DNA of 63,290 nt, filler included, from Perkinsus olseni (GCA_013115125.1; 37 parts of 37 records of this genome joined end to end with filler, not necessarily neighbours in it); one strand, 5' to 3'; positions 2,099-60,048 are shown, numbered from the whole stretch's first letter. Program-made: numbers and translations. The notes: generated from the sequence alone by a model not told the origin.

Positions 2099-3324
2099 TG
2101 TCGCTAAGTCCTACAGAATGGAAATTCATGATAAGTAGTGTAGGCTGCACAACGATGTCCCGCTAGTTTATTGGCCGTCGGGACTACGAAACTAAGCAGA
2201 GTTTCGGAGACAGATTATTTCGTGTATCGATTCATCGCAATCCTTTCGTTCTTTGCCGGATGATCCCCGCTGTCAGCTGTGACGTAACGAGTGCCTTCAC
2301 GCTGTCCGACTCAGTGTGGCTGACACAATGAAAATTTTCATCTTTCTGTTCGAAATTTTCTAAAATTTTCGAACATATAACAGAAGGAAAGCGCGCGCCC
2401 GAAGGAAAAAAATGAAAAAATGGCTGTTTTGGAGCGAATTTGGGGTATTTTCATGAATTTTCTCTGCCACCGTATTGCGGTCTAACCGACTACTCATTAG
2501 TCACTAATGTACGGCGGAACTTCCAGATATATCTTTAGCCTCGATGCCATGGCTTTTTCCAGTAATATTCTGTTCGTGCTTAAATGATTTCCCGAAGACT
2601 TCAAATGTTACAAATGTGTGCCAAATCATGTGTCTGACAGCTAAGATGTGAGTTCCGAGAGCTTGATAGGTTGAAGTTTATACTTGAAGACAGTCCGCTC
2701 CCCAAGACCGAGGTCCAAAAGTTTTGGACGTTTCAAAGTTGTGGTTTTGGACCAAAACCCCTAGCGCTTGTTGAATGTTGTTGCAAAGAGGATTTGCGAT
2801 ACGATCACAGACTGTGATTCACAGTATCACCGTGCACTGTGTTGATTCCGGGTGTCAGTGCTTGCGCTCAAGTCAAACAGAGTTGGGACCCGAACAACAA
2901 GGCCTGCACCTTTCGTCCAGCTTCTGCACGATGAAGAAAATTCGTTAGAAACAACGGCTGCCGGGGGTCTAGGTCGTGAGATATGGGATACTCACGTCGT
3001 GCATTTCACGGCATGAATTTCCTGTTGATAAACCTGATAATTATCTCGGAGACAAGGCCATACGTTGCTGTAATATTCTGTGTTCATGCGTAGCTAGCTT
3101 GTTGCGCGACGAGCATGATACTGTACGGCTTGTGCAGATGGACGGTCATGGATGGTCGTTTGACTGTAGAAGCTACGCCAGTAGACAGCTTATCGACCGA
3201 ACTCGGCATGGATAACATCGCTCGAGACACTTTGGTGAAAGAGGTTGCTTCCGCAACAAGGCCGTTGATGTCGTGCTCATCCCAGCTGAGCGATCTTCCA
3301 ACAGCTTCAGCGCGCTCACAAGTC

Positions 3325-3396
3325 CAGGGGCCTATTCAAGTGCTTTTCGTTTCCGGGTTCCGAGTCCGAGGGAAATTTACCAGGCCCCGAGTCCGA
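3325..3396 (+). mobile_element. Putative DNA-transposon terminus (TIR plus CCGAGTCCGA subterminal repeats)
   Basis: CAGGGGCCTATTCAAGTGC followed by repeated ccgagtccga. The same terminus recurs in reverse at 49969-50040. Confidence 0.6.
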
Positions 3397-3498
3397 NNNN
3401 NNNNNNNNNNNNNNNNNNNNNNNNNNNNNNNNNNNNNNNNTTAATTAATTAANNNNNNNNNNNNNNNNNNNNNNNNNNNNNNNNNNNNNNNNNNNNAG

Positions 3499-4980
3499 CA
3501 GTCGGTACTACTACAGCGTGTTGTCGACCTCACCTACCTGCTCATTGGTAAACGTCATATCGACATCCGCTACGTACCTACAGCTTCCAACCCCGCCGAC
3601 TCTGGCACCAGATCTGAGCTCTACTCTGATATTATCAACTTACGAGACACTGTGGATGGTTTCAGTATCAACGACTTTGATGTCGATAAAACCGAGACCA
3701 ATACCAGTACTGTTCACATTTCACGAGTGGTGAGGAAGCGAGATGCTACGGCTGATTCAGATTCTTCTAACAACAAGCGTGTTAGACTCGAGAAACCCAT
3801 CAAAGTTCCTCGACGACCACTCCTTCCACTAGTAAGGCCATCTACCTATGATACTGTACAACTACCACCTCATCTACTTGAAGTCTACCGATCTCTTCCA
3901 CTACAAGATGATGGTAAACGGGAAGTCGCTGACTCCGACTTTCTCCAAGCCTGTGCTACACATTGTCATGAGCAACGGCATGCTGGTGCTCCTGAAGTAG
4001 AAGCTACTCTCAAGTCAACTTTCCACTGCCCGACCATCAACCTCAAGGACTTGGCTACAACTGCTTCCAGATCATGCACCACTTGTTCATTGATCAAGAC
4101 CGCTCCTGGTGATCGTCAGTTCAAGAATTCCGTCGACGACGACTTCAAGCTCCCTACGCGTGTCTGGGAATCGGCAAGCTTGGACGTCCTAGGCCCATTC
4201 TACACTGACCCGGTCACAAAAAAGCCCAAATTCTTCTCTATCAACCTTGTCGATCAGCTCAGCAATGTTATTGTCTCTCTACCCACTATCGGCCCTCCTA
4301 CTTCTACTGATATACAACGAGCTTGTAACCTTCCACACCGGCTCTACAACCACGCTGTGGTCAACATCACCACCGATAATGCTACGATCATCACTGCTGC
4401 TGACCACAAGCTACCAACTATCAAGTTTCATTATGTACCACCAAGGTGCAGTGCCTTCAATGGTCATGTGGAGAGACGGAACAAGCTGATGAATGAACGA
4501 CTAAGGCGATTATTCGCTACTACTGCTTTTGTGGACGACGACACTTGGCGCGACTTCATCGCCAAGAGCTGCTACGAGATCAACACCAGTCGACAACCAC
4601 TAGCAGATGGACTTACTCCTCTTGATATGATACTCGAGACTTCCACATCTCCTATGGATGCAACTGAGATTTGTCGTCCTTCAGCTGACAAATGGGACAA
4701 GTGGATCGGCTTCAAGCATCTGTGTCGTGATCGCACTGTTGCTACTATGATCCGCAACACTTCTTCTGGTGGGCAGCTAGCCGTCGGCGACATGGTACTC
4801 CAACATTCACTTGAACCTCATCCAAAGTCTTCAACTCCATGGCAACCTACTCCGAGGACCATCACTAATATTGTTGGTAACAGAGTTCTACTGGATGATG
4901 GCTCGTGGACTTCGACTGACAAGCTCAAGCGCTTCACAGCCAACTTAACTGTACAAGATGATGATCTATGTATATTTTGA
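3499..4980 (+). mobile_element. pol: LTR retrotransposon pol C-terminus (RNaseH end plus integrase), BEL/Pao-like
   Basis: Frame open from the contig start. RNaseH end YVPTASNPADSGTR, HHCC (HCHEQRH...CTTC), DDE core SLDVLGP / TTDNA / HVERRN. Confidence 0.88.
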
Positions 4981-4995
4981 TCTTCAATATCATCT

Positions 4996-6700: not shown

Positions 6701-8388
6701 TCAGAAAGTTTAGGGATTTTCACAAGGGAGGGGTGGACGGCATGGATGCGCGCAGTTCAGAGGCTCCGAACAGGCCAGCATTGCACTGGCATTACTGGAT
6801 CAGGGAGTACTCTCAGATTCTGAGACCCAGAATCATTCTCGGCAATGATGTTGCCTTCGGAGAGCAAATTGACTGTCTCAGGATAGCACTNNNNNNNNNN
6901 NNNNNNNNNNNNNNNNNNNNNNNNNNNNNNNNNNTTAATTAATTAANNNNNNNNNNNNNNNNNNNNNNNNNNNNNNNNNNNNNNNNNNNNGCTCTCGGAA
7001 GAGCTCATCGGAAAAGGCGGCAGGAAGTAGATAGCTCCCCTCGTGACGCCTCACCGTCGACATCGTGCTATTGAAGGTCAAAGGCCATCTTGATATCTTG
7101 ATTGCCACAGGCTGTGGCCCGCAGCCGACTAGCAGTTGGCATGAACTCCTCCCACTTCGATCTCTGCCCAGCGATACTGGCATGTAAACGGCAACATAAC
7201 CAAATCGAGACTCTATCTCGCGGTCTACCGTGAACACGGCTGCAGTGTCGTCATAAAAAGGCTAGCGGAACGCGTCCGGTACCCCTCCGCAGGATTGAGC
7301 CCTTGGACTGAAGTTTTTTTTGATTCGACGAGGGAGAGAGAAAAACGCAGGGCCTCGGGGAAGGCGAATCCTGAGCGAGGATGTACAGAACAAAATTTGA
7401 CCTCCAAATTTTTATCCTCTCAAGTCCTCTGAAGCAAACGTTTCAGTTCCCCTTGATATGTCGCCAACGACTACTGCATCAGTGCCAGAGGTGAAGTTGC
7501 AGAAGGGAGAGGTTCTCACTGGACGAAAACTTCGCACTGCTCCAGCATCGGCTCACAATGTGGGGCGAAAACTTGTTGAGGGCAAATTTGCCTCGAATGT
7601 CCATGCGCCATGATTTGAGTATGCTTTGCAGTTTGAAATCTGGACCGATCAATACTTTTGTTGTAAGCCGTAGGAGAGCTGGTGCAGGCCACGATGTCCG
7701 AGAGATTCTGTTTACTCGCGGAAGGTGTGGCAGGCCTTCTGCAAGGGTCAGCGCGAACCGAGCGCCGCCGCGGGGTGGGTGAGCTGCCATTGACGGCTGC
7801 CAGGAGGAAGCAGAACCGTAGCTCTCTCGTACAAGGAGATTGATCACTATTCCCCTCTCCCACAGTCTTTCACGCAAGAGACAAATCATCATTTAAAGCT
7901 TGGGTGGAATCTAGATGAAGCTGGCTTGAATCCACGAACCTGCTCAGCTTCTAAACAGGCTCGTAGTTTCAAGCCAGCTGACGGACTGCGAGCAGATGGT
8001 TCAAGGAGCCTGATGCGCTTCGCTCCGCTGTGCTCTAGACGAGGCACTTCCTCCATGAAATGCATGGCTTTACAGGGCTTAATATGGCTTAAAACACCAT
8101 TTCCTGTGTGTTGCGTCCTATGTCACCCGATACACCCGAGTGGCACAACAGTGCCAGCTCAAGAGCACAGCCCTTGTGACAACTCACCCAAGAAGCTAAG
8201 AATGGAGTAGGTTTGATTGAAACTGTGCGACAGAATGGTCGTAATATTTGTACGGAAATTCAAGATCGGAACTTGAAAGACTCGTTGAAAAGTTGTTCGG
8301 CACTGCTCTCGTTCTTAATACGATCTTGAGAAAGTACGAGATGAGCTTGGGATGAGCCCGAGCAGTGCCGATGCTCACTTGATAGTTC

Positions 8389-8636: not shown

Positions 8637-11600
8637 NNNNNNNNNNNNNNNNNNNNNNNNNNNNNNNNNNNNNNNNNNNNTTAATTAATTAANNNNNNNN
8701 NNNNNNNNNNNNNNNNNNNNNNNNNNNNNNNNNNNNGTGAGGTCCTGTCGACCTTTCCGACGCTAGCTTGGTGCCGCGCCTTGCCCCATCTCGGAGACCA
8801 GAGGTTTTAGAAGAGATAGTGAGAAATTTGAGAGGGAATTCAGCCTATGGATGACATTGACATGATTATCATACCATGGTCATGAAATGATGGTATTAGC
8901 GATGATTGGACTTGATGTTCCAATCTTCAATATTATTCCCGGCGGACGGCGGTATGTCAGACCACAACTAATGTAGCAGCGTGCGCCGAAGAGCAATCGT
9001 GGTGCGTGTAGTCCCTTTACCCTCTTGGTCTCCTCCTAGCACACTTGCTTAAGGGAATATTGAGGTGACTGCTCAATGAGAAGTGCTCATACCTCTGACC
9101 TTATCACGGAAATGAGAATATAATGAGCAAAATAGACTGTGAGAAGCATCGGATTACCTAAAGATGAGGTGATGACTGAATCACCACGATCCGAACTAAA
9201 ATCTAATAAGCTAGCCGAAAAGTGCTCCTGGGTATCAGCAGATTGTTAAAGGTATGCCGCCCTGGACTGAACTCAGTGCCATTAAGGTCTCAAGAGAAGA
9301 GCTGACTTGAACATGTGTAAATCGGGACTAGGAAAATAATAGGACTTTTCAACTGATCAACCAAAGCGAACATGTTGACTGCGCGCATACTCACTTTCCT
9401 CGCTGAATAGAGCTGGCGCACAAAGCTCGTTGTCTACATGCAGACAACGAAAGAGAAACAGGTGTTGCAGATGCCCTTGGTACTGTGGCACAGTAACTGT
9501 GCTCCAGACAACAGCAAAGGATAGCCGAGAGCCTCTCGGCGAGAGACAGAATTGTACTTGCGTACACCGCAACAAAATAGCTATGGTGGAATAGATCAAC
9601 TTGGCGACCTATAGAAACATAGCAATAGGGAGTTACACTGTACAGTACTCAAGGCAGAGACATCACAGCAACGAAGGCAACAACATCACAGCAACAAGGA
9701 CTCTCTTGTGACAAGAGAGTGACAAGATTCTTGTCATAGACTCTTTCGATAAGGTTCAAAATGGCCATTTCCCGGCCCGGGCAAAATGGTATTTTGAAAG
9801 ACGCGTCCACGCTGGTTGCAGAGTTATATCATTTTACCACCGTCATACAACTGATGCCCACGAACGATCATCCATAACTGTTTCGTAGCTCCCCGTCACA
9901 GGACAGGACTTCACAGGTCAATCTGTGAGGAGCTATTAACTCCTAAGAACCTCTAACGCTATATGCAATTGGTCAAGTTGTCGCATACAGCACATATCAT
10001 CTGATACAACAAAGGTGAAGACAGAATCGACAAAGCGGCAGAACGATAGACCAAGGTGACTCACCGCGTCACCAATACATATGTCAAGACACCGCGACTA
10101 ATACTTATTCTTTAACAATAACAAAATTCTGATCATTGGTTAGCTCTAGCACAGATGTGCCCAGAATGATGAGAACTGGACTTTTACTTTCCACTATCGA
10201 GTAGTTCAAAGAGACGGTAGGGGTAATTGACCGGAACACGATGGTGACTTCGGGACTCGGGATCCGAAGCGCTGATCTACACACCAATATAACTTCGGAA
10301 TCTCCAAATCCCTTCTTGGTCACTGTCGATGTTCACGAAAAAGATTATTCGCGACCGTTGGTAGCCTCTTTCACCCTCCNNNNNNNNNNNNNNNNNNNNN
10401 NNNNNNNNNNNNNNNNNNNNNNNTTAATTAATTAANNNNNNNNNNNNNNNNNNNNNNNNNNNNNNNNNNNNNNNNNNNNGATATCATTGCCCTATACAGG
10501 CCATGGGGACAGATCGGCCACAATAATGTATTACAGTAGGCAATCATTGAAATGGCGGTTCACTACACACCGTTGAAGGGCTCAATAATGTAGGCTGAGG
10601 GGAGCACCACTGGTGATGCGCCAGTCGAGGAGCACACCGTTGTTAGGCCGCTTGTAGCCGCTCGCAGGATCTGCCGGCGTGAGGCCGCAGGGAGGGCAGT
10701 AGGTGTCTCTCCTTGTTACTCTCACTGCCGTCAGGTCCACCGCGGCTACCGCCCCGACTCGCAATCCCCGTACTCAGAGGTTTCACGAGAAGGCAGAGTC
10801 ACCATTTCGCCAAGTGAATGTGTCGTGTAATGCGACCGTGGTTGTTGTGCCATTCGGGTCTCGTCTCGAGCACAGCGGAGCGAAGCGCATCAGTGGTCTC
10901 GTCACCCGCGTGAGGGGAATTAGTGAGTTCTCTGGGGGTCTGGCCAATTCTGGGCAGCAGCCGGCTGTCATTCATTGTCAGCGCAATTTGGGGAGGAGGA
11001 AGCAAGGCTGAACCAGTTTCTCCTTCTAGAGAGAAACATTGAAGCATGAGAGGTTGCTGGCAAGTCTGCCCACATGGCATGATAGATCATATAGTGGAGA
11101 GGGAGCGCCTCCGAGGAACCAACGCGTCTTAAGAAACTCGTTGAGGTCGAGGGCGGCTCGAAGGTTTGGTAGCAGTCGATTCAAGCGTCGCCACACCTCT
11201 TCTGCCCTATTCACCAGCGCCTGTAACTGAGCGTTTTCGTCTCGCCTACACACATTGCGTTTGAGCGCATTCGCTATGCCGTGGTGGAGAGTATTCCAAT
11301 CGTATGGGATCGATCCCAATGGCATCAGGCCATTCAAGACAGGAGGCATGAGCGTTCCTTTCATCAATGGTAGTCCCGCGAAGATTTGATGATGTCGAAC
11401 GACACGAACCCTCGAATAAGCTGAACTACACGGAGCTCCTCAGTATGGTTGGGACCAAATCCGCCTCGAATTGGGCTGGGCTACAACCTGCAGGAGGAGC
11501 ACGCCGAGAATACGACGCTGACGCACGGTGAGTGCGGCGGTCGCACTCGAGGTTAAACTATCAATAACAGGTCGTTTGTGTTGTCGCTGGCGCCCAAAAG

Positions 11601-14058
11601 TGACTCGGGGAAGAAGCCAGTGGTATCCTATCCCCCGAAAGCAAACCGTGCCGTTCAGGCTCAGGAGGTCTCGGCGCACTCGATGGGGATACTTTTGCCC
11701 TCAACACTCCCTGTTGTGCTCGTACAGGTAGGTGGCGCACGAATCGCACAGCTCAGTCGTTGCTTGGGGGGAAACGTTTTGTCCTGCTTAGCTCCGTCCG
11801 CTCCTCGAGCACGTCGCCAAAGACTGTAAAGATTCAGCGGTTCTAGCCAACCACCATCCAATCACGATCTCGATGACCGTCACCCTGGCCACTAGAAGGA
11901 GGTGAGCCCACCAGCTCGATTTCTCTGAATCTGATACCATCCTTTGGTGATCCACTCTCCGTGCTCAGGTTGGTTTTTGAACGCAACGCTCATTTCCTTT
12001 TGATCATGCAGGTTCAGCGTAACCTGCAGCACAGCGTTCCGTGAGAAGGCGGTCAACGGCCAGCGGAATAGAGCTGCGAGCGCCAACCTCACGAGCGTCC
12101 AGTAATTATCTACTTTTGCTGNNNNNNNNNNNNNNNNNNNNNNNNNNNNNNNNNNNNNNNNNNNNTTAATTAATTAANNNNNNNNNNNNNNNNNNNNNNN
12201 NNNNNNNNNNNNNNNNNNNNNTTTTGTAAGCAGCTCCGCAAGCGTGCGGCACGCTGCGTACCTCATTGCCTAATCCTCAGTCATCTAGGGTTTTGTAGGA
12301 AAGTGTCACGGTCGTATCATCTTTGTTCTTTTCCATCCGTAAGCCATGTTGCGACAGAACAGACTGTCCTTCCTTCATGGGCCACAGAACGGACTGATAC
12401 GCCTGTGTCTGCGTACATTAGCACGCACACTCACCGACCCTATAATTGCGAGGTCTAGTGTAGATAATGCGAGGAAGAATGACAATTTGCAGAGTAGACG
12501 TTCCACACGCACCACCCTGATTACGCCAATTCAACAGCGTGTGTCTTTTAGATGGTGGTAATCTCTTCCATCAGTAATAGTAGGAGGCACCTGCTAAATA
12601 CTACCTCGAGCTCAGAAGTGAGTTCGAGGAGTCCACTTCCCTCAAATCCACAGAGATCACAAGGACGACATGGAAAGGCGGAGATGATGACGAAAAGGGA
12701 CCGAGGCAGTAAAAACTGGCCGAGGAGAGAAGGGAGATTGGCAGAGAGGCAAACCTAACCAACCAGCACGAGCGGAAACTCAAACGATGATGGGATACAG
12801 GACAGCCTTTCATGCTGTTTAATTCTCTACTTACCTATTGCGAGTTGGGAATGGAGTGGTATGTGATGGATTATCGTCGCAGGGTGCAGCGAGATTGATG
12901 CTTCATGATCAATGATGAAACCTAAAGCTTTTATAACGGAAGTGGAGATAACTTGAGACTCGCTGCAATCCACAAATACAAGGGTCTTGGCTGATGCTGT
13001 CCGTGATAAAGTAGATGCCGCAGGAGAGCCGAAGCGACTCTGAGCCGAACGATGACAACAATACCATCAATTAGATGGGGTAAGAGTCCACTAGCTTGAC
13101 GCTAGAAGAAATCAGAACACAATTTGGCAGACTTGACATGCATTCTAAAACCACTCCAACTTGCTGTCGATCGCTTAGTCATAAATGCTGTTACCAGCAT
13201 ACTGTCGCTTCCTGACGAAATGTGTGGTAAGAGTGGATGAAGGCCTCAGTTGTTTTTCCTGCAACCAGATCAAACTTGATGGAGCGGGTTTTTATTGTTT
13301 ATTTGGCTTGTGTATGAGTCGAAATTTCCGGGCCACGAAATCGGGTCGTGGCCAAACTTGTGCTTATTCATGAGCTCTATCTGGAGGAGCTGGTATTGGT
13401 GAAGGGGTGACTGCCGCTCTGGAGCTTCCAGCGCTTCTCTGTAGTTTACGTGCTCGTCACGCTCACCTCGCATATCTTTCATCAATCCCTTAATGAAAAA
13501 CCTCGACATATCTTCCGCCATACAATCCTACAAACATGCAGTATTAGCATATCTCAATTTCGGGCATTGGAGTAAGATCGTACCGGTCGCACAGAAGGCG
13601 GTGGAGAGTCCACACGCAGACGTCATGGTAGGTGTGGTATTGGGGTCTCTCAACTCGAACCATGCATGCTCTGAAATTTTACTGGTTGTGCTGCTTTGAT
13701 ACCTAATCATGGTTATGGTAGGGCCGGACACCGTGAGTGATACTCTAGGAGGAAAAAACAACAACCGCGGCATAGCAATGCTAAGGGATTGGCTTTAATT
13801 CTGCACCGCACACCCCGACTGGATTTACGTATCATCTTTATCTCCGTGAATAACAGTCATNNNNNNNNNNNNNNNNNNNNNNNNNNNNNNNNNNNNNNNN
13901 NNNNTTAATTAATTAANNNNNNNNNNNNNNNNNNNNNNNNNNNNNNNNNNNNNNNNNNNNAGAACTTTTCGGGCACTGAAAGGATTTTTTGGGAGCCGAA
14001 AGTGTTTTTCGGGCGCGCGAAAGTACCGGCCCCCCTAAAGTACTCAAACCGCCCCTAA

Positions 14059-15197
14059 ATTACTCATGCTTGCCCCTAACCATTTTCTTCGGTGTACGAG
14101 TCGTACAGTACGACCATTATACGTGCTTTCTAGGACTATTGACCAGTGTCCACGTATTAGGTAGAGTCTACGTTGATTTTCTGCCATGCCAAGGAAGTTG
14201 AGAGTGCCAAATCGCTTTCATTCTAGATCTTTAGGGCACGTGAGCGGGTATGTAGGCGAACTGAATCAGGCCTGCCGTACAACTGGCCAGTACAGGCCCT
14301 ATACTGTAGGGGTCTTCAGTGAAGACTCTTCACGTTGTTATACCGCTACATTGATAAGTTTGCACAATCCAAAAGTTGCAGATGGGGGTACAAAATATGT
14401 AAACGAGAACGTTCGCTACAGAAGGTATTGGAAGCAGAGAACGCTAAAACTCTTGAAAGCATGCTCACGTAGCAGCATCATTTACTGGAAGCTAATAATT
14501 TCTAGCGCTAGTGGCGTAATTTAAGTATTAATTTGCTTGTCTCTCTACTAGCACGGATATCTTTATGCCAGTTATATACGGCATAACGTGTTTCACGACT
14601 CGTCACTCTTCTGTCTTGGAGAGGTTCTTGGGCATTTGAGTCGGTGTAACCACTATCAGCGTGGAATTTATGGCATATATCGTTTGCCTACCACCGATCA
14701 CGCTGACAGCCCTTTAGCGGCAGTTTGTCACACGATCCGGGAGAGCGGGAGCTCGTTAGATTGTCTCACTGACTCTGATTTGTTTAGGTCGGGTGGTGGG
14801 CCACTCTAGTACTAGCCCTGTTTTCTGAAGGGATCCGAGCTTGCGGAACTTTCTGTTGAAAAGCTGCAAGACCAATTGTCATTCAGGGGAGCATGTGAGG
14901 AATCAATGATGTGATACTTGAATCGTGGGCCCGGGAATCACAATTGTACTAGTACATACTCGGGATTTAGTCCTAGTTTTCAAGGATTGTCAGTTATTTA
15001 TGACCTTTCTTAGCGGCTAGGATCCAGCCGACATCCTGAAGGGCGTATAATAACGTGGTGTAGCCAGCGCCGCGCGGTGTGGTAGAATCTTTATACCCGA
15101 CGTCTGGCGAGGGTCGGAACGCCGGGTATCGCTTTCTTTTTTTCAGACCTTGCGGTGATTACTTATGCTTGCCCCTAACCGTTTTCTTCGGTGTACG
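14059..15197 (+). repeat. 40-bp direct repeat pair (14059-14098 and 15158-15197), probable transposon end
   Basis: attactcatgcttgcccctaaccattttcttcggtgtacg vs attacttatgcttgcccctaaccgttttcttcggtgtacg (38/40 identical). Confidence 0.8.
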
Positions 15198-15698
15198 GCC
15201 TGAAAGCCTTTCAGTGAAAGGCTCTGCAGCCTCCACTGTAAGACGGCCTGTAAAGAGTATAAGCCTTCCGAATCAGTCTGTATCTCCCCCGTATGCTGTG
15301 GGAACTTATATAAAGTGGGAGTTGACGGAGAGAAAGGTTGACATGAATCTCTGCTGCTACCAATGAGGCTGATGATCTAACCTTTTCTTTACTCGCATGA
15401 CATAGCCTCGGTATGCCCTGCATCGCATTCGTGTGCTGTGGAAACTCATGTCGCGTGCGAGTCGACGGACAAAAGGTTCGACATCAGTCTTCGCGATTAC
15501 CACTGGTAGGCTACCAGTGACGCAGATGATCCAAACATAGCCTCACTTGGGCGAGATAGTCGTCAAGTGGTCTGTCTCACCTCAATGTGCTCTGGAANNN
15601 NNNNNNNNNNNNNNNNNNNNNNNNNNNNNNNNNNNNNNNNNTTAATTAATTAANNNNNNNNNNNNNNNNNNNNNNNNNNNNNNNNNNNNNNNNNNNNG

Positions 15699-36893: not shown

Positions 36894-36926
36894 ATCGTCG
36901 AGACTCCCTCCTTCTTTCGTATAAGC

Positions 36927-46358: not shown

Positions 46359-46394
46359 CGAACTTTGGTTCTTTCTTTGTGTTCGCCTCTCTCT

Positions 46395-46487: not shown

Positions 46488-46660
46488 NNNNNNNNNNNNN
46501 NNNNNNNNNNNNNNNNNNNNNNNNNNNNNNNTTAATTAATTAANNNNNNNNNNNNNNNNNNNNNNNNNNNNNNNNNNNNNNNNNNNNTCCGTCGAGTTCA
46601 AAGGGTGGCGAGATTCCTGCTGTTTCTAGTGAACGGCCTGGTCAAGCCGGGAACACTACA

Positions 46661-48180
46661 TTGGTACCCGATGCAGGATTTCTTGCTCTTACTGGTTCTG
46701 AACACCGACCGGCGGGTGACTCAAGTGAAGGTAGTGCTTCTTCGGCCCGGAGTGAGTTTGGCAAAGCGGTTGGGCTCGATGCCAAACTCATTCATCTGCT
46801 GAGGCCAGAAGAAGTGGAAGCTCTTGTGGCTAAAGTTTGTGGTGAGGATTTGGACAAACGATTACGGCTTCGATTCTTGTATCAGTCGGCGTTGACTGAG
46901 GTCCCTGCTGTTGCCCCTGTCCAGGTGAATGTCCCCCATGTTACTTCTCGGTTGGACTATGCTCGGTACCATAGACCACTTCCCACGCCTGGTGTTGGCG
47001 GGAGAAGCGATAATGGATGCGGTTCCAGTATTCATGATCTATGCTTGGAGCAAAGTTCCGGCGCTGACGACTCTGTTAGCATCAAATCGGTAGGAATGGT
47101 CTCTACTTTGCCCATCCCTGGTGGCGGTCAGTGTTTCAATGGCCGTAGTGATTCTAGGTCTGTATCATATTTCTTAAGAGAGTGGCTCCAGATGTGCCGA
47201 CTATATGGTTTGTCGACAGCTAACTGCTGGAGGTATCTCTTGAGATGTATCAGCGCTGGTGTACGATCAGAGCTGATGGATAGCTTAGAAGATAAAGGTT
47301 TTCTTGTCTCTGCTTCTGTCGAGCAGAGGCTGCAACATGCTGAAATGTTCCTGAAAGGTGCTTACAGTATCACCGATGATACTGTACGGTATCGTCAAAG
47401 GCTTGCTCAGGTTAAGCAGAAGTCCAATGAGCTTATTGGAGAGTATATCGGTCGTCTAAGGGAATGCTTAGCTGAAGGACGCTGTCTAGGTATTAACATC
47501 TCCAATGACGAGTTGCTTGATAAATTTGTTCGTGGTTTACGGCAGAATTATCAGAAGGCTGTGAAGACTATCTATGCTCACATTCGTGACACTAATGAAT
47601 TGTGTAGTGTGCTGACTCTGTGGGAGGCATCCAACGGTGAGAATGCTACTGTTAACTCTCTAAGCGTTGATGATGACTCGGTTAATGCAGAAGCTCCTCA
47701 AGTATTACAAGCTGCTCAGGCTCAAGGAAGCTCCCAGAGAGGGAAGGCCCCTATGAGGTGTTGGCACTGTAACATGGTTGGCCATATGAAGAGAGACTGT
47801 GAGCTCTGGAAGGCGAAAGTGAGATTCCAGACCGCCCAAACTGCTCTTGTCAATACTGGGAAGCCTGTATCCTCTCCTCCTGTCAGTGCTCCTCAACCTC
47901 AAGGCCAGATTGTGACTACTCCATCGTCGACGTCTGGAGTCGGTGGTAGTGCGGTTGGGCAAGGGGCTGATCGACTCCCACCAAATACTGCTTCCCAGGA
48001 CTTTGAGAAGGTCTCTGTCATCTCGGCTATGGTGAGTGGTAAAAGGCACTGTATGGTGGACGTGATTATCCGTCAGGAGCCGCGCCGCTCACCATGGGGT
48101 GCCAAGGTTGCTGCGCTGTTGGATACTGGTGGACAGGGCACTGCGTACATCAACGCGGACTTGTACCGTGCTATCAAGGG
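46661..48180 (+). mobile_element. gag: Gypsy-like Gag plus start of aspartic protease
   Basis: KQKSNELIGEYIGRL, CCHC knuckle CWHCNMVGHMKRDC, protease motif ALLDTGG. Confidence 0.9.
46662..46680 (+). promoter_or_regulatory. tRNA primer-binding site after the 5' LTR end (...TACA at 46660)
   Basis: TGGTACCCGATGCAGGATT is complementary to a tRNA-shaped 3' end AATCCTGC-ATCGGGT-A-CCA and lies directly upstream of gag. Confidence 0.65.
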
Positions 48181-48331: not shown

Positions 48332-49261
48332 TTAGCCAGGGAAGCTGGCTGGGAAAGAGTGCTGAAAGAGTGCTAGATCAGTAGGAAGAGTGCCAGCACT
48401 CTTCCTAGAAAGAGTGCTGGCAACGGGTATAGAGTCCTCAGCTGACCAGGTTCTCCCAATCTGCACCGTCATGTCTATTATAGTTTGCACAAACCTCAAC
48501 ATTGGCTTGGCCCGATGTGTTGCAAAGCCCACCCCCGGAACGTTGGAGGTCAACCTTATGCAAGCATCAGTGAGCCGTTTCTTCTGTGAGGGGGTGAGCC
48601 TCGCCGCCTCTTGGACACCAGGATACTGCGTTATCTTAGCCTGTGACCGGGAGCCCAGTGAGCACTCATGCTTAACCATGGATGAAGTATTACCATCAAC
48701 GTTCGACACCACGACCAGGCAGTCCCTACATACCTCAACATCTTTGCAGACGAGTCCAGTTAACTTGCAGTCAACCAACCGAAATCGCTCCCATACGTCG
48801 CTTCTCGAATGAGGCTTAGGCTTGCCCACGGAGAAGCGTTCAGTGTCAAGAACGTGACCGAATGGGGGCGCAGTAGGAGCAGTTTCGGTTGTCTTCTTGC
48901 TTGTTGTTGATTTTCTTCTAGCCTTAGTTATGGAAGACGAACGGGCAGTAGCCGATAGGTCTACCACTGGGGTCGCTAAGCTCTCTCCTCCGATCTTGGG
49001 CTCAGCCGTCAACGTCAATCTCTGCTGTTTAGCAACCGGCGTTGGCTTTGTTGGCCCTGACTTCCTTTTCTCACGGCCTGATGGTGCTTGTCGTAGGGCA
49101 GTATCAGAACCGGATAGGCTCAGGCGTTTAACCGGAGCAGACCCACATGACTTTGAGCGACTAGCTTGAAAGGAGGAGTCAGAGTCAGAGGATGAGGCAG
49201 AAGATGAGTCAGAGGACTCGGGGGAGTAGTCCTCGTCCGACGAGTGCGATGAGCTTGGCAT
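48332..49261 (-). pseudogene. hAT (Ac/Hermes-like) transposase N-terminus, disrupted
   Basis: BED finger RSDVWERF...CRDC...GNTSSMVKHEC and a Hermes-like DNA-binding/dimerisation region ending IPVASTLSR. A palindromic insertion (~48380-48420) then leads to a stop. Confidence 0.78.
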
Positions 49262-49569
49262 TTAGAGAGTCTCTAATAGAGACTTAACTGGCGATCTGTC
49301 TCTCATGATTCATGAACGCTCAAGATTCTTGAGTCAAGAAAGAGCTCTTGCTGCTACGCGAAGAAACGGCCGGATACTTGAAATCTTGCTCTCTTGTACA
49401 CTCACTGACGGCGAAGCGACGCAGTCGAGATGTGCACGAGGATCGTCTCGTCTCGCTGGTTCCGAGCGAGGCGGGACGAACGAGCGACGACAATTGGCTT
49501 GACTCGCGAGCCGAGCCGCGAGGCTCGGCTCGCGTGAATCGAATGGCATGGTTCGAGTCGCGTAGAGCA

Positions 49570-50129: not shown

Positions 50130-50510
50130 CCACGGAATTGAAGGTGTACCTACTGCAACTGCACAAGTTGCCACTGTCCGAGGAGCGACTGCACCAGTTG
50201 ACACGAGACGAGAATAGGATGTACTAATCAATCGTGTACCAATTTGGCTGTGTACGAAGTAATTACTGTAGCAGTGGCAACTGCTCCAAGTAAAACTCAC
50301 CCGGGATAAGCATCGGCGTACTTGCCGGCCCCTTGACGCTGCGTGGAACTTTGGGAGTGGGCGTCTCTTGCTATCGATGCAGCGACGTGGCCACGTATAC
50401 CTGGCTGCATGACTATTTTGATGACCTGCTCATTGCAGTCTTCGGAAGTTCCAAGGGCCTTGGACCAAGGCACCTTCGCTTAATCGGAAATCAGCAGCGA
50501 TGAGCAGCCA
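50130..50510 (+). pseudogene. Decayed reverse-transcriptase fragment
   Basis: YFDDLLIA from 50414, with upstream remnants broken by stops. Confidence 0.35.
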
Positions 50511-51653
50511 CTACGAAAGTGAGACTCTTATGATGCAGAGGTTAAGAGGGTGAACAGCGTGTGGTAGGGGTGTAAAGTCTATCTCTTCAGCTAGACTCAC
50601 TTCCATCTCTCGATCGCATTGCCAGAGCCGCTCCAAACCCTGTTTGGCTGCTACTACTATTCAGAGTGAACAATTTTAGTAGTGTACCAGAGACTGCCTG
50701 ACTCTGTGCCCACGGGCAGCGGTCTCTGGTGTCCTACCTCCACATCAAGGGTGCAGAATGCCAGATTCAGCCTTAATAATGCAACCATTAATGCAAGTGC
50801 GAGTGCAACCATTAATAATTTTTTAGGTTTGTATGGTCGCAGTATGACAGCGGTAGTACCGCTGTCATACTGCAACCATACGAACCAAAGCAATATTAAG
50901 GTACCAATAGCGGTACCGCTGCGGTATCGCTATTGGAGCACTCTATGGCGCGTTCTGCGCGCACGCATCTTCGCTTTTTATGTGAATTTCACTCCGGCTG
51001 ATCCTCCTGTTGGAGGATTGCTACCATGAGATGATCAGTCAGTAAACCTCTACCACAAGGTCCTAGGAACCGTCAAGCTCCGCATGATTCAGAGAACTCT
51101 CCCGTTTATGGCAAGAAGCGATCGCAAAATGCAATCTCGGATAGGAATATAAGATTGCGATTCGCAATCTCCTATTCGTAGGATACTTCCTCCCAGCGAT
51201 TGCCGCGAACATTGCCCGTGATGCTAGTAATGCTCGTCGGGCAAGTGTAGTAGTTCGTGACATATGAAGCTTCCATGGATACTAATAGCGTCCCTCACGA
51301 AATTCCCATGATTGATGGTTAAGAAGTAACCGAGTTTAGTCACGAGTGGTATGGACGTTGGCATGTCGCCCGCCTACACGGGACACACTGCTGGGGTGCG
51401 ACACGGATTGTGTCGCGTCGGGCGAGCGCGTCATGGTAGCTAGCTAGTTGTTCACGTACAAAAGTGTAGGGTATGTGTAGTATTCGAAGACGCAAGACTC
51501 ACGTCTTGCTGCCTTACGCCCCCTTATATTCTACTTATTTTATGAACTATGGTNNNNNNNNNNNNNNNNNNNNNNNNNNNNNNNNNNNNNNNNNNNNTTA
51601 ATTAATTAANNNNNNNNNNNNNNNNNNNNNNNNNNNNNNNNNNNNNNNNNNNN

Positions 51654-53226
51654 GTTCCAAGAGCTTCCTCATGAATCGACGTAGGGAGACTCGATCATTT
51701 GTCAAGTAGTCGTCGATCCTGTCACGTAGCCTTTCGCTATGGAGCGCGTCGAAGATCTTGCGCTTCATGTCGCGATCAGTAGGCTCGGACCCAAGGTTGG
51801 CAAGCTCCAACCTTATACTTTCGGCACGGTCAAGTAGGGCAGCAACATCTTCCTGTAGTCCCTGTTGAAGGTTGTGCAGCAGATCTTCAGCACGCAGACG
51901 GACCTCTTCATTGTTATAGAGACTGTTCACGCGCCGAAAAAGACTCGCTAGATGGTCGGAGTAGTCCCCATGGCACATGGCCGGGGCTTCTCGCCCAGCC
52001 GTGATGTGGCGCCATACCGAATCGTCACAGTTAAGTTCCGCCCAAAGATAAGCAGCAGCATCAGGATACCCCTTCATCGTACGCTTGATGATGGCAACCC
52101 ATGTCGCGCCACTGCGACGATCTTTATGGCCCAAGAACTTGTCGGCACCCTTACGCTTCTTGGCAATGTTGTGAAGGGTGTTGAGATCGGAGAGGGAGAT
52201 CTTCTGACGACACTTAGACTTACGACATCCACAGCACCAGCCATCGAGATCGACGCGACGTTGTCGATCGGAAGTACCGATAGTGCCACGGCTCTTAAGA
52301 CGGCGATGATGACGGCGGGAACGGTCGGACTCGGATCCAGATGAAGATGCACTCGAAGAGCTCAGCGTACGACAGACCGAAGACCCAGAGTCCGAAGGAC
52401 TTGATGACAGTGACCGCGAACGCCTCGTTCGACGACGACGATGAGATCGATGGGGTGGAGATCGCTTCCTCGTTTCGGAACGATCCATCTCAGCATCCGC
52501 CGGCGTAGCTGGAACGTTCACCGGTGGAATGTTCACGGCCGACACGTCAAGACCTGGCGCCGAAGACGATGGATGCGACGGTGGAAGGTGTAGATTGTTA
52601 CGATGGTCAACACCGAAGGATGGCGTAGAAGGGAACGTCGACACAGGGTCAGGAACCACCGGAGATGTACCCGTCAAACCCACATGGTAGAGTGGCCTTT
52701 GATAACTATAGATGCTAGGAGCTTGCGCGGTCCACGGCTGACAGAATGTCGTCAACCCCGCGAAACCAGCAGTCGGAGCCAAGAGTGGATGGCCAGCAAC
52801 AACAGGGCCACTCGGGACGACATTAGCACTGGGACGATGCGGACCACCGTGGGGGAGATGATAGAGGTTGCTATCCTGATGAGGTTGACGGACAGGTATA
52901 GAGCTGGCATCACCACCGGCAGGGAGAACGCCTGCTGGGCTAGTCGGCGTTGGAGAGTTGTCCGGAGGTAGAACACCAACGGAACCGCCATGCCATGACC
53001 TTGACAAGGGGGTAGGCAGAAATAACTGATGGTTCGACAGCAGTTCCTGAGGTGGTTGAAGTGGAGGTTGATGTTGACCAGACGTAGATGCCGAGAAGGA
53101 TGGCTGTACACCACCCAGTTGAGTCTGACGTTGAGGAGGAGGAGGTTGGCGAGGATGCTGAACATTGTCGTTAATGTGAATGGTCTCGTGAATGGCATCG
53201 TCTGGAGAGGGCATCCAAGCGTCCAC
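51654..53226 (-). mobile_element. gag: LTR retrotransposon Gag with long Pro/Ser-rich N-terminus (partial)
   Basis: KFLGHKDRRS resembles FNGRSDSRS in the Gag at 46661. LQQGLQEDVAALLDR is a major-homology-like motif. Confidence 0.7.
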
Positions 53227-53334
53227 CGGGGGCGNNNNNNNNNNNNNNNNNNNNNNNNNNNNNNNNNNNNNNNNNNNNTTAATTAATTAANNNNNNNNNN
53301 NNNNNNNNNNNNNNNNNNNNNNNNNNNNNNNNNN

Positions 53335-54255
53335 GGTTAGGGAACCCTCTATCGCTGCAAAGAACCTCTCGTAAGTGTTTTGGTTCTTCCTGGGGAGAAT
53401 GGCGTAAAATAGAGGGAACATGCGGCCACAGTCAAATCGGACCATCACCGTAAATTGCTGCGACCAATGCGTCGGAGAGGTTTTGAATGTTCCATCGACA
53501 GAGATATGGAACCCTCCTCCGTCGTTCTTCATCGCGTCCTTTACCCAAGGATCCATCCAGATGATAAGACGATCCTTATCCCCTTCGCCGCTATCGAATA
53601 ACACGGTAGACCGACTCAAGCCTCCAGCATCCACGTGGGCAAATGCAGGTGGCAGAGCCGCTAGACCTTCTCGACTAGAAGGGGCCGTCGGTAGCCCGAG
53701 AGAGGCTTTTTTGGTTTTACGCAGAGTCTCATGTATCGCCTTGCGACTCGGCAGACCCATCACTGCTGCGTTGTCCATTGTTGGAGTCACCTCGTGAAAC
53801 GGCTCCATGACGCGTGCCCTCACCGGCAACTCTGCAGCCTTCTCCTTCATTTCAATGTAACCCTTCATAGAAGGCGCATCCGGATCCCCGCATGTGTGAG
53901 AACCTTTGACAGTTGCGGTGGCAAACCTCACGTCATCAGAATTACCCGTCACGAGTAGCCGAGCATTGCACTTGCGATATCCATTGCTCTTAAAGCCGCG
54001 ATACCTCTTACAGCGACAAGAAAAGGAGCCCCTTTCTCGAGCAGGTGGGCGATCGCTATTCCCAGCAGCATTCCGATGGTAGAGGTACCCTTCAAAAGCA
54101 TAAAGAGTTGTCCCCTGACGCTCTCCACGAACTATTTCCAGCCGTGGGCCCGCGGTTTCGTCAGCAGGAGACACGGGGGCCACCATGCCAGGCTGGTCCG
54201 CATCTTCATGCAGCTGAGGTGTCCCAGAGGCGTGAGGAGGCGGGGTGGTATTCAT
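53335..54255 (-). mobile_element. MULE (Mutator) transposase with FLYWCH/WRKY-type N-terminal domain (3' partial)
   Basis: FEGYLYHRN...CRC...CNARL...GSHTC, VDGTFKTSP, PLFYAILPRKNQNTYERFF. Confidence 0.9.
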
Positions 54256-55014
54256 ATTTGTGACGCAGAGGTGGGGAAATATAACTAAATCGAGTCAATG
54301 AGATTCGAACGAAGCATGCTGATCCCCCGGGCGGACTCCGCGGAATTACAGATCTGCACAACACAATCCACCACCACTGTAGCACTCCAGCTAATCCGCT
54401 CAGTGAATCGTTATCGCGATCGACAAACGCTCCCGTTCTCCTATATATTGATAAACCCAAAAAATTAGCGAAGCGATGAAGAACTGGAAGGCAAAGTGAA
54501 GCTCAGCGTATGGAACACACGCCGCTCTTTCTTCAAGAGTTACAAGCTACAGTTATTATGCTGGATTGGAGGTGAATACAAAAAAGGCTGTCGCAGCGGT
54601 GCAGGCTTTCGCGTATAAAGTCATCATCCAGAACGAAATAAAGGAAGTTTAGTTAACAGGGCTGGATGTATTTTGGATGAATATGGTGATAAATTGAGGA
54701 TGCTGCGATTAGGTTTTGATAGATGAGATCCAGCGATAGATGGATGCAATTTGTTGGGGTAATTTCCATTCTGAGAAGGCCTTGTGGATACAAACGAGGA
54801 GATAAATCGTTATAGTGAGATGATTATTGAGCGGAAGAGCCTCTTTCGAAGAGGGCACCGAGGAAGAGCAGAAAGGTTGAAATGTATCGAGAGGAGATAG
54901 ATGAAAAGAAGAACNNNNNNNNNNNNNNNNNNNNNNNNNNNNNNNNNNNNNNNNNNNNTTAATTAATTAANNNNNNNNNNNNNNNNNNNNNNNNNNNNNN
55001 NNNNNNNNNNNNNN

Positions 55015-56593
55015 TCGGAGGTGTTGATTTTCCGCAACGATAAATCGCATTCCGATGTTCTTCGAGGCTCTGCCATGAGCCATTTCTCAACCATAAAGTT
55101 GCCTGCCGACGTTCGTGCCAAGATCAAGGTAGCTGTCCGCGCCAATAGGAATACTACAGCGGGAGATCTATATGCAAAATTCGTGGCCCCAAATCCAGCC
55201 AGCTATCCGTGTGGCGAAGATGAGAGTGCTCGGGAATATCGAAAGCGTTTGAAGAAGCACGTAGGCCATATAAAGAAAGCGGAGATAAGGCAGATGAAGC
55301 AGGAGGGATTCGAGAGTGTGGAAGAATTCTCACAGACTATTGCCGAACGACATTCCTGGTCCGAGGATGACTGGGAGAGAGCCTTACAGCTACTGAGAGA
55401 TGGGAAGAGCCTGAAACCAGGCATGATCCACATTGGGAGCATGATCGGGTCTGAACACTATTGTGTTGCTGTTTGCCCCACCGCCGGTGTCGAGAGTCTC
55501 TATCATTATGCGAAGGCAGCCGCCGGCGCTAAATCTGCCATAACGATCTACTGTGATGGTCAGCCTAGCGTTGTTAGGGGCAATGACTCAACTACGTATA
55601 CCATCGGCGTGTCCAAGCTAACCTTGGGCGGTAATGCAGGAGAAGGTCAGCCGTTCACAACTAGTCTATGCCCCGTGGTGTTCTGCCTACTCGATTCCGA
55701 AAATCGAACTGCGTTGGAAAGCGCGTTCGGCTGTTTCGAAAGGCTGCTCCGAAGGGTGGTAGGTGATGTGGATATCAAGGTGGGCGGGGCCGTGGCTGAT
55801 GCCCAAGTTGCTACTATGCAAGCGCTCCAAGCTACGTTCAACAATGTGATGACACACCGCTGTCGGTGGCACCGGCAGCAAGCTATTGCGAAAGCAGATA
55901 AGCTTAATAACATAGATAGAGCCCAAGCTAAATCCATCGGTGAGATGCTCGAGCGTTCTGGCGATCCACTGGTTCACGAGGGTATTCTGAAAAGTGCCTT
56001 GGCTGACACGAAGACTTTCTCAGCGAGGTTGCGCAAGTATCTGGAGACGTCCTCGGAAGAACGCTTCGGTAAGTGTTATCTGTTACCTGTATGGTACGAC
56101 GAAGCCCGAGAACCTCACCTGTTGACGATGTCCCTTGATAATAATGTCAGCGAATCATTCAATGCTGTCGTTAAACGAAAGCTCGGCCGCCGAATGGCTT
56201 CTGGATACGAGGTGGGTCAAAGCCTATATGAGTTCCCAAATGCCCTTTCACCCTGAATTTTCAGGTATATAGCCACTTTCTAGAGATATCTACAATACTA
56301 GATGCGTACTTGGAGCGAGGAACTTTCACCAAATACGATACTGTGAGGCTTCCTCTGCTCGATAGCAGTATCAGTCGAGCTTCGACCCGCCTACCCAATT
56401 CGTCCATAAGAGTTTCGGGAGAAATGTATCTGGTGGCATCGGCTGGTCGCAGCCAACAACACCTTATGAGTAGTGATATCGAGAAATTCCAACGCCGAAA
56501 TCACCAGCTGTTGAGAGATTGGGACTCATCAGTCCTGTCCCTCTATTCTGTGAGATGGGTGTGTGAGCAATGGGTGTGCCAGTGCCTGGCTTA
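55015..56593 (+). mobile_element. MULE transposase with one intron (56212-56264) and the start of a SWIM finger
   Basis: YCDG, PVVFCLLDSE, VADA, CRWH, DNNVSESFN. Removing a 53-nt GT-AG intron joins the frame to ...WVCQC. Confidence 0.85.
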
Positions 56594-58008: not shown

Positions 58009-58082
58009 GGTCGATTAGTTCGGCTGGATAGCATATCAGCCTACGGAGGAGATGGTCGTAGGTTCGAATCATGCACCGATTA
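58009..58082 (+). pseudogene. Degenerate tRNA (Arg-ACG-like)
   Basis: A-box-like TAGTTCGGCTGG, CTACGGG loop and GGTTCGAATC B-box at tRNA spacing, but the stems are mismatched. Confidence 0.55.
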
Positions 58083-58426
58083 TATTTAGTTCTCGACCGA
58101 CATATTGCAAGGATGGCCTCGTTTGTGTTGAGCTAAGGGGATGATCGTACAGGTGGTCTTCAGAAAGGTGACGCAAGTGTAGTGACGTGTCTCTCGGTCT
58201 TCAATAACTAGCTTGACCAGAGACGTAGAATGGACGTGATTCCCATTAGAAGCACAAGGTGTCATCGACCANNNNNNNNNNNNNNNNNNNNNNNNNNNNN
58301 NNNNNNNNNNNNNNNTTAATTAATTAANNNNNNNNNNNNNNNNNNNNNNNNNNNNNNNNNNNNNNNNNNNNGTCAACACGACCCGACATGGCTGGAGAGA
58401 TGCGTCAACCAAATGTACACTGAGAC

Positions 58427-58448
58427 CTTGAGCCAAGATGGCTATGGA
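58427..58448 (-). other. Second SL-like sequence (relict leader or variant SL gene)
   Basis: TCCATAGCCATCTTGGCTCAAG is 20/22 identical to the SL at 1586. The downstream sequence is unrelated to the SL intron. Confidence 0.8.
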
Positions 58449-60048
58449 CTTAAGAGCTATCGACACTCAATACTCAAGGCTTATGATAAGTAGAACATCC
58501 CACTCTAGCGCGGGATCGGCAGACCATCTGCACGCATGTATAAAGGAAGACAATCTCTACCAAACGAACTGATCGAGCATAACCGCAAAATCGGGCAATG
58601 ATGTTTCTGAAGAATGTTATTCTGACAGTGCAGTCTTCTCAGGCTGAGAATCTCAGCTCATGATAGTGATTTTAGTGATGCCCATGATGATGCCCTTGAT
58701 GTGTGAAGCTTATGTCGAGACCTGGTTCTACGACCTGGGGATTATCGTGAAGAACCAGCCTTCGATTCGCGTTTTTGGGTACGACGGTTACTCTTGGGTG
58801 AACATGGCCGATGGTTCGCCTGCGAAAGGCAGCGCTCTCTTTGGGTGCTTCATTCTCGAATCATTCCTGATGTTCAGATGACATGAAGAGGCTGCTTAAC
58901 TAAACGGTGCGAGAATAGGCTGTGAAAGGCTGGGATTCCACCTTGATTCTCTCTATTATGTAATGACTGTTGCTCTTCGATGTAAACCACCCTAGGGGGC
59001 CTCATGTATCGCTCCCCACAGATACTCTCCACACAAGCTGTGGCTACACAGGATACGCACTAACAGAGTGGCTGATGTTGATAATCATTGAATATTGTTA
59101 TCATCTTGTTATAATTCAACTAAAAATCTTGTGTTAAACAATGACTACCGGTTTAGACATGGGAGCACCTTACAACGGCAAGGTTGATGCTGAGCATTAG
59201 CCTTCAGTTAGTGTTTCGCATATGAGTTTTTTGTAGTTCCCTGACATACTAACAACTAATTGTAAAGTCAGTCTTTTGTGGCAGGAGGGCGGATGCTGGG
59301 GTAGAGCCACACCACAATCTTAATGAGTAGCCTTACGACAAATTGTATGCGTACAGCATATTATTAGAAGTAGATCTATTCTTTTATAGCGTAGACAACT
59401 ATTGCACGCATACACAAGGTACGACCCCTTCGTGGCCTATTATTACCAGTGGGCTTGACCACCTGATTGGGACACACCCTTGCTTGGGGCTTGACGGTAT
59501 TCACAATCCGTGAACCGGATCGAAAGTGTTTGGCACTTTAGTATACAAAGCATCAGACTGAAGTTTACTAGCTTAGTGTGTACCATTTTTGAGCGTACAA
59601 GGCTGCACGAATTTCTTGTGTGCGAGATATTAGTGGAAAAGATCTATTAGTGTACGAACTCATAGTGGCAAGTGCGGATCTCCGCGATGACTCCCACAGG
59701 AGTGTCCTAAGATTTCTGTGTACGAGATTTATGTTTATGAGTGATTATACACTCTGACGGCGGGCCTGCCGCCCTTTACTGGAGCAAGAAAGTGGCACGT
59801 GGCCCCGGTCCTGGTCCTCGAGTGCCGAGGATAAGGCGTCGTGTAGCACTAACGGCAATAACTCTAACCAATGACCGCGGCGGGGCTCTCAGCCTGTAGT
59901 ATGTGGTGCCAGGTAACCGTAGTCTACGGTGCGCTGTTCGTGTCGCNNNNNNNNNNNNNNNNNNNNNNNNNNNNNNNNNNNNNNNNNNNNTTAATTAATT
60001 AANNNNNNNNNNNNNNNNNNNNNNNNNNNNNNNNNNNNNNNNNNNNGC

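Follow-up and report, generated by a model that had tools for sequence, protein, structure and literature searches.

A 22-nt double palindrome recurs across a 63,290-nt stretch of DNA from Perkinsus olseni (GCA_013115125.1; the whole stretch is referred to below as the window), and its copies are most probably donor-site footprints of hAT-superfamily transposon excision, in which the hairpins on the two flanks were unfolded over at least 8 nt and annealed through the reverse-complemented target duplication. For an 8-mer X, each footprint reads X1-7 + revcomp(X1-8) + X2-8, 22 nt in total. A preliminary description of this DNA had listed seven such 22-mers. All seven were recovered at their positions with an exact fit to the pattern, and the scan of the whole window raised the number to 17 perfect copies across 11 of the 37 contigs, so that the listed copies are real but the earlier total (7 of 17) was an undercount.

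The window consists of 37 contigs of 1572-1648 nt each, ordered by length and joined by N44 + TTAATTAATTAA + N44, with a G+C content of about 50%. An all-against-all blastn of the 37 contigs found almost no sequence in common, and the duplicated 8-mers differ at every perfect site with no family sequence, in agreement with the earlier view that the contigs are unrelated and the 8-mers all different. Thirty dinucleotide-preserving shuffles per contig served as the null model for duplication lengths (k) of 5-10. At k = 8, 17, 28 and 41 copies were observed at up to zero, one and two mismatches, against shuffle means of 0, 0 and 0.17 (maxima 0, 0 and 1). The other shuffled lengths (k = 5-7, 9 and 10) showed no excess; three perfect copies were found at k = 5 (shuffle mean 1.0), none at k = 6, 7 and 9-13, and 27 at k = 4, for which no shuffle was made. 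The peak at k = 8 against shuffled controls proposed in the preliminary description was thus found within the window (17 perfect copies against none).

A majority-vote listing gave 17, 13 and 16 copies at zero, one and two deviations. Two entries (2059 and 18196) were dropped as +7 shifts of better matches, and a set of 44 sites (17, 13 and 14 copies at zero, one and two mismatches) was used for the target logo, the overlap with open reading frames (ORFs) and the clustering. One-mismatch copies previously placed near 9526, 25222 and 54833 were located at 9525, 25222 and 54833. The sites, to which no strand is assigned, are as follows.

Perfect 22-mers
1820-1841, 8-mer CTTTGTGC
2804-2825, 8-mer ATCACAGT
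9481-9502, 8-mer TACTGTGC
14093-14114, 8-mer TGTACGAC
14312-14333, 8-mer GTCTTCAC, adjoins the imperfect copy at 14290
15200-15221, 8-mer CTGAAAGG
18189-18210, 8-mer TGTAGCAC
20554-20575, 8-mer GTCAGAAG, within a Ty3/gypsy-type pol ORF, +14 nt compared with a P. olseni paralog
24697-24718, 8-mer GCAAGAAG
24901-24922, 8-mer CATGAAGC, overlaps the copy at 24921 by 2 nt
24921-24942, 8-mer GCTAAAAT
33403-33424, 8-mer GCAACAAC
39847-39868, 8-mer CCTGCCGC
49262-49283, 8-mer TTAGAGAC, directly upstream of the ATG of a hAT-like ORF
49319-49340, 8-mer CTCAAGAA, upstream of the ATG of the hAT-like ORF
50450-50471, 8-mer TCCAAGGC
58636-58657, 8-mer TTCTCAGC

One-mismatch copies
2052-2073, nested in the 65-nt palindrome 2034-2098
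2488-2509
6811-6832
7104-7125
9069-9090
9525-9546
12241-12262
24598-24619
25222-25243
39319-39340
39921-39942
40005-40026
54833-54854

Two-mismatch copies
14290-14311
13 further copies, starting at 6490, 10603, 11312, 15496, 17845, 24721, 25357, 25429, 25597, 29278, 35308, 38359 and 57767

Geometry of the footprint and a proposed route to it

The pattern was generalised to X[1..k-o] + revcomp(X) + X[1+o..k] and scanned over duplication lengths k = 5-12 and nick offsets o = 0-3. Only the combination of an 8-nt duplication with a 1-nt offset was enriched (17 matches), and two retained copies of an 8-bp duplication flanking the scar were accordingly recognised at k = 8 alone. The combination of k = 10 and offset 3 gave two matches, which are the sites 18189 and 39847 with their pairing lengthened by chance flank bases, and offset 0 gave none at any k from 5 to 12. 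The uniform expectation computed in this grid agrees with the chance figure of about 2e-4 given in the preliminary description.

The same 1-nt offset was apparent from the palindromes themselves. There were 64 perfect palindromes whose centre is a single base and whose arms are at least 7 long, against about 3.9 in shuffles, and those with 0, 2 or 4 central bases were at background level. Thirty-four of the 64 are halves of perfect 22-mers; among the other 30, several lie within imperfect 22-mers and others are free-standing. With offset 1 alone recovered and odd palindromes alone in excess, the centre bases within the window are complementary to the terminal duplication bases, as had been claimed. 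In hAT footprints, the rule is that palindromic additions have as their centre the complement of the element-adjacent duplicated base (PMC5873905). Pairs of palindrome centres implying one and the same 8-mer were counted at spacings of 1-60: spacing 7 gave 24 pairs and any other spacing 0-4, with about 0.9 expected by chance. Spacing 1, which corresponds to the classical 16-nt hAT footprint, gave no pair, and spacings 1-6 were all at background.

Two variant junctions and three long odd palindromes were also recognised. Both variants have palindromic tails of 9-11 nt; those of the first are 9 nt long, and the same 8-mer is obtained from either side.

Variant footprints and long odd palindromes (no strand assigned)
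2713-2759, variant footprint, odd palindromes centred at 2721 and 2751 with arms of 8, both giving TCCAAAAC, with 13 nt of filler between them
9700-9736, variant footprint, odd palindromes centred at 9710 (arms 10) and 9728 (arms 8), 8-mers agreeing at 7 of 8 positions
1956-2002, long odd palindrome, arms of 23 nt, single central G
2034-2098, long odd palindrome, arms of 32 nt, single central C
50839-50873, long odd palindrome, 17 perfect arm bases, single central G (38-nt arms at 87%)

It is extremely unlikely that such regularity arose from replication or repair errors independent of any transposon (template switching, snap-back synthesis) or from fold-back artefacts of the library or assembly. 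Template switches and snap-back synthesis can yield forward-reverse-forward triplets, and the contigs are short and derive from a fragmented assembly, but neither errors nor artefacts predict a fixed length of 8, a 1-nt offset or single-base centres complementary to the terminal bases. Moreover, the graded decay over zero, one and two mismatches looks like real sequence of different ages, and all 44 copies are internal to contigs, the nearest lying 67 and 72 nt from a contig end.

The odd palindromes also bear on other systems that hairpin the flanking DNA. The RAG coding joints of V(D)J recombination and the Transib transposons share with the Perkinsus scars a flank hairpin, an off-centre opening and palindromic additions. 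In both RAG and Transib the cut falls exactly on the border, so that the palindromes are even, and the duplications made are 5 bp long. Neither feature is enriched in the window, where k = 5 gave three copies against 1.0 in shuffles, offset 0 gave none and even palindromes were at background.

Another flank-hairpinning superfamily with 8-bp duplications, chiefly a FLYWCH-type MULE of the Muta1 kind, is an unlikely source of the footprints. Muta1 combines a FLYWCH finger, 8- or 9-bp duplications and flank hairpins in the part of the account used here (PMC5499845), and a similar ORF fragment is present in the window: among the ORFs scanned against Pfam (30 of the 53 of at least 120 aa and 116 of the 159 of 75-119 aa), the ORF at 53335-54294 (-) gave weak FLYWCH and MULE matches with E of about 1e-3, below the Pfam cut-offs. 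The Muta1 hairpin, however, is even (43 + 43 = 86 nt), and in yeast over 90% of Muta1 excisions are described as precise (PMC5499845). The nick offset of MULEs in Perkinsus may differ from that of Muta1. The even hairpin with 8-10-bp duplications of the MULE type has no counterpart in the window, since even palindromes are at background, offset 0 and k = 9 give no copy, and k = 10 gives only the two chance extensions. A further ORF at 55015-56253 (+), which has no Pfam match, may by eye be a transposase related to that at 53335-54294.

The proposed hAT origin of the 22-mers can be set out as a series of steps. In Hermes and RAG the non-transferred strand is nicked first and the flank is hairpinned, according to the sections consulted (PMC6900584). 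In Perkinsus, a hAT element would have inserted and duplicated 8 bp (X). On excision, the transposase would place a nick in the non-transferred strand of each flank, at a point 1 nt inside it. Attack of the resulting 3'-OH on the other strand would cap each flank with a hairpin, which on the left would read X1-7, comp(X8), comp(X7) and so on, with the right flank as its mirror image. If the opening of the hairpins then lay 8 nt or more away from the tip, the left one would unfold to X1-7, revcomp(X) and the complement of the left flank, and the unfolded 3' tails would carry revcomp(X) and X, a ready 8-nt complementarity. Annealing, flap removal and ligation would produce X1-7 + revcomp(X) + X2-8, a fixed gain of 14 nt wherever the nicks fell. 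The same product may be reached if just one hairpin opens and its tail serves as a primer for synthesis around the other one. In contrast, if the tip were opened and the 5' ends resected, the two copies of the duplication would anneal with each other and the original site would be restored without a trace. Because the 22-mer prevails over short footprints, distal incision with annealing seems a better fit than opening near the tip with blunt-type joining, as far as a route can be read from its product alone. For each site we infer a former element, distal hairpin opening, an annealing step, and host nucleases and a ligase.

Empty site, target bias and transposase sequence

One 22-mer can be compared with a copy of its site that has a single 8-mer. 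The site at 20554 lies in a pol ORF (19158-20564; 469 aa, integrase-bearing) with 97% identity to a partial P. olseni protein and 80% to a P. chesapeaki protein. When the 22-mer was collapsed to the 8-mer, the ORF lengthened from 469 to 537 aa and stayed open to the contig end. A P. olseni paralog with 93% identity (P0002) reads ...AGARQKYFYDKKAKSR... through the site, and tblastn with this protein followed frame +3 to contig position 1409 and frame +2 from 1415, the switch falling inside the 22-mer. Judged from these alignments, the 22-mer at 20554 is a +14-nt insertion that breaks the frame of a retrotransposon pol gene, with the paralog carrying the single 8-mer. The +14-nt product postulated earlier held at this, the one site that could be checked.

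Tiny introns and introner-like elements were considered and rejected as a source of the 22-mers. Of the seven 14-nt removals that would give back the 8-mer at 20554, the one site examined, none has GT..AG ends, and the gene finder is therefore unlikely to have spliced the insertion out of the paralog. No family sequence was found, and the repeat architecture of the introners of Amoebophrya differs from that seen here. These elements of a related parasite (Myzozoa) resemble the scars in being short inverted repeats between direct repeats, distributed genome-wide; unlike the scars, they are introns in sequence families, with inverted repeats of 8-20 nt and direct repeats of 3-5 nt in the portions of the report used (PMC7789003).

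Only 2 of the 44 scars fall within ORFs of at least 250 aa, which occupy 36.6% of the sequence. This depletion was not taken as evidence of selection because a +14-nt insertion itself ends an ORF, which makes the comparison partly circular.

A lean towards the hAT consensus nTnnnnAn is seen in the target 8-mers, though it is weak and not symmetric. The consensus is the preference recorded for Hermes in the sections of two studies drawn on (PMC6900584; PMC10368747). At position 2 of the 17 perfect sites, T occurs in eight and C in five (a pyrimidine in 13 of 17), and at position 7, A occurs in nine and G in eight, that is, a purine in all 17. Over all 44 sites, A7 was found in 22 and T or C at position 2 in 30. 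The earlier tally for the seven sites first listed (both T2 and A7 in three, at least one in all seven) was reproduced.

A candidate transposase was recognised immediately beside two of the perfect footprints.

48335-49261, strand -, hAT-like ORF of 309 aa, with an N-terminal BED zinc finger and the DNA-binding part of a Hermes-like transposase, stopping before the first catalytic Asp

An exhaustive HMMER search with this ORF found 11 proteins at E <= 1e-3, one of them its own record; several of the matches carry zf-BED and two a weak DBD_Tnp_Hermes. In protein atlas clusters these two domains occur in a minority of members and serve as leads only. A profile built from the ORF and seven relatives matched the Hermes transposase (8edg_A) with E = 1.9e-28 over Hermes residues 9-229, a span that runs from the BED finger through the DNA-binding domain into the beginning of the catalytic core. 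Among the relatives is a P. marinus ATCC 50983 protein, Pmar_PMAR014109 (P0128), which can be aligned with residues 28-278 of Hermes (E = 2.5e-8); the aligned stretch contains blocks which we take to be the first two catalytic Asp residues and the CxxH motif. Through the profile of the window ORF and the P. marinus relative, the genome is seen to encode hAT-type transposase sequence. No complete transposase was seen in the window scans, and no copy was demonstrably active.

The window ORF departs from its relatives just past ...TLSRK and ends ahead of the first catalytic Asp. At this divergence point the motif AAGAGTGC(T/C) occurs in five copies within 64 nt (48355-48418; four on the + strand and one on the - strand). 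A hAT element with an internal deletion may be the source of the cluster, as its subterminal repeats.

Density, clustering and neighbouring sequence

The scars are both dense and clustered. ORF-free contigs hold 39 scars in about 34 kb, approximately one per kb. As a rough estimate, with a mutation rate of about 1e-9 per site and generation and a genome size in the tens of Mb, about 1e-4 to 1e-3 fixed excisions per genome in each generation would account for the perfect copies, a figure in the ordinary range of transposition. Over 21 ORF-free contigs the dispersion index was 2.44 (p = 3e-4), with nine scars in the contig 24340-25965 alone. Three pairs abut within 2 nt (14290/14312, 24697/24721 and 24901/24921) against 0.51 expected (P = 0.013). 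Clustering of this kind would be expected from local hopping or from a preference for scars already present, and the abutting, overlapping and nested footprints (for example 2052 inside 2034-2098) suggest re-insertion at or beside old scars.

Density and clustering, together with the lack of any mobile element family seen in the window, would also suit a host-domesticated hAT-type nuclease that makes repeated hairpin-capped breaks, the palindromes being by-products of a programmed or regulated process. Domesticated hAT transposases that form flank hairpins do exist, Kat1 being an example in the excerpted source (PMC4763223). Such an origin is nevertheless very unlikely for the scars described here, as two direct copies of the 8-mer presuppose that each site had earlier received an insertion with an 8-bp stagger, and a domesticated nuclease leaves the duplications unexplained. 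In addition, the 8-mers all differ and share only a weak consensus, so that the cuts are not site-specific, and a scar that breaks a retroelement ORF looks like collateral damage.

A number of observations weigh against hAT excision as the source of the 22-mers. The empty site concerns one of the 17 perfect sites and was derived from a predicted protein, not from DNA, and the gene model of P0002 also lacks 15 residues elsewhere. T2 and A7 occur together in only 4 of the 17 perfect sites, with at least one of them in 13 and neither in four, and the logo is asymmetric (C8 in 11 of 17, G1 in 5 of 17). The hAT-like ORF on its own gave no Pfam match and no match to Hermes among solved structures, and a word-based search for longer relatives of it found none; the link to Hermes depends on the profile with seven relatives, six of which have no known source. 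A hAT catalytic or dimerisation domain was absent from the window ORFs scanned. No structure with an 8-bp duplication and terminal inverted repeats (at least 10 of 12 bases) was found in the 37 contigs of about 1.6 kb each, repeat finding and the all-against-all blastn recovered no element family common to contigs, and this small sample of 37 contigs yielded neither an occupied allele, with an element between two copies of an 8-mer, nor a hAT terminus. A density of about one scar per kb of ORF-free DNA far exceeds that of any hAT footprints known to us. Finally, the placement of the Hermes nick 1 nt inside the flank relies on what Zhou et al. reportedly described in 2004.

The hAT-hairpin interpretation given in the preliminary description is supported: the length of 8, the offset of 1, the odd palindromes, the +14 nt at 20554 and the transposase sequence agree with it, with a weak lean of the target 8-mers in the same direction. 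An occupied allele or element terminus was not found in the window.

Some dispersed repeats lie next to footprints. The pairs 14059-14098 / 15158-15197 (40 nt, 95%) and 1787-1820 / 10753-10786 (34 nt, 82%) end exactly at the footprint starts 14093, 15200 and 1820, and the fourth copy has no footprint. Also, a 34-nt island is shared in inverted orientation between two contigs (8010-8043 / 10860-10893; 97% identity), with unrelated flanks on both sides.

Ty3/gypsy-type retroelement fragments make up many of the contigs, and five ORFs have Integrase_H2C2 and rve matches (Pfam). Most other window ORFs scanned gave no Pfam match. These include five contig-spanning ORFs of 526-542 aa (15699-17324, 26067-27689, 41487-43088, 46589-48178 and 51655-53232), which by eye are probably gag, pol or other pieces of unclassified mobile elements. 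A mucin-like ORF at 22614-23468 (+) is rich in Thr, Ser and Pro and contains tandem repeats with a period of 63 nt.

Two tRNA genes lie on the - strand at 244-314 and 449-521, 135 nt apart (Rfam RF00005; 58.5 and 62.6 bits), and a PAP2_C domain extends across two frames at 62596-63106 (+). A Snf7 (ESCRT-III) gene at 37080-37751 (+) occupies three frames (Pfam positions 51-94, 96-127 and 124-169) and is interrupted by short introns or frameshifts; no 22-mer is present at its frame switches. Repeats of the AACTAACTA type occur at a contig end (31016-31132) and a (TAG)n run ends the contig 36368-37974; the assembly appears to break within simple repeats.

Relation to known hAT systems and meaning for Perkinsus

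Excision footprints of hAT elements that combine hairpin-derived palindromes with microhomology are already known. In yeast, the palindrome arms left by Ac/Ds reach 20 nt and 88-89% of junctions are based on microhomology, according to the sections drawn on (PMC5873905; also PMC1978519). Footprints of Ac/Ds in plants, Saccharomyces cerevisiae and Candida thus resemble those of Perkinsus in the retained 8-bp duplication, the complement-centred P nucleotides, the joining by microhomology and the long arms (PMC5873905; PMC1978519). They differ in being heterogeneous and mostly short, with, for example, 28 types among 128 Candida revertants in the material consulted, whereas Perkinsus shows one dominant product with the full 8-nt overlap of both unfolded hairpins and not a single 16-nt classical footprint. 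The Ac/Ds footprints come from reporters, while those of Perkinsus come from a wild genome at about one per kb of ORF-free DNA.

Hermes of Musca domestica shares with the Perkinsus system a profile match that extends from the BED finger through the DNA-binding domain to the beginning of the catalytic core, together with 8-bp duplications; the nTnnnnAn preference of Hermes is seen in Perkinsus as a weak lean. The window copy, on the other hand, ends before the catalytic Asp and has low identity, its ORF alone does not match Hermes, and there are no known element ends from Perkinsus.

In the literature searched on Perkinsus transposons, palindromes and hAT elements and on genome-wide hAT footprints, this pattern was not found described. 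What appears new relative to that literature is the near-exclusive use of the full 8-nt overlap, with its fixed +14 nt, and its density in a wild perkinsozoan genome. The parts of the Perkinsus literature covered, genetics papers included, contain no statement on the repair of hairpin-capped breaks.

A broader proposal joins these points, and it is offered as possible though rather doubtful. Hairpin-capped breaks in Perkinsus may be incised distally, in an MRN/CtIP-like manner, and annealed, rather than opened at the tip as in Artemis/NHEJ-type (non-homologous end joining) repair, and hAT excision might have in essence a single mutagenic outcome, a gain of 14 nt and a new perfect palindrome. 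ORF-free DNA might thereby be seeded with about one hairpin-forming scar per kb; the scars may attract further insertions and may feed new inverted-repeat elements or regulatory hairpins. On this proposal, hAT elements would be both a major shaper of the non-coding genome and a read-out of break repair.

Perkinsozoans are a sister lineage of dinoflagellates and apicomplexans, and Perkinsus is reportedly polyploid and heterozygous. If the pattern holds genome-wide, the uniform product would report on the repair of hairpin-capped double-strand breaks in a perkinsozoan, and each event would add 14 nt and a palindrome, a frameshifting class that gene finders and variant callers for Perkinsus should expect. 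The recent, perfect scars would then imply a hAT family active now or recently. The scars would also amount to a countable fossil record of excisions, which usually leave little trace, and excision rates, target choice and local hopping would become measurable from sequence alone.

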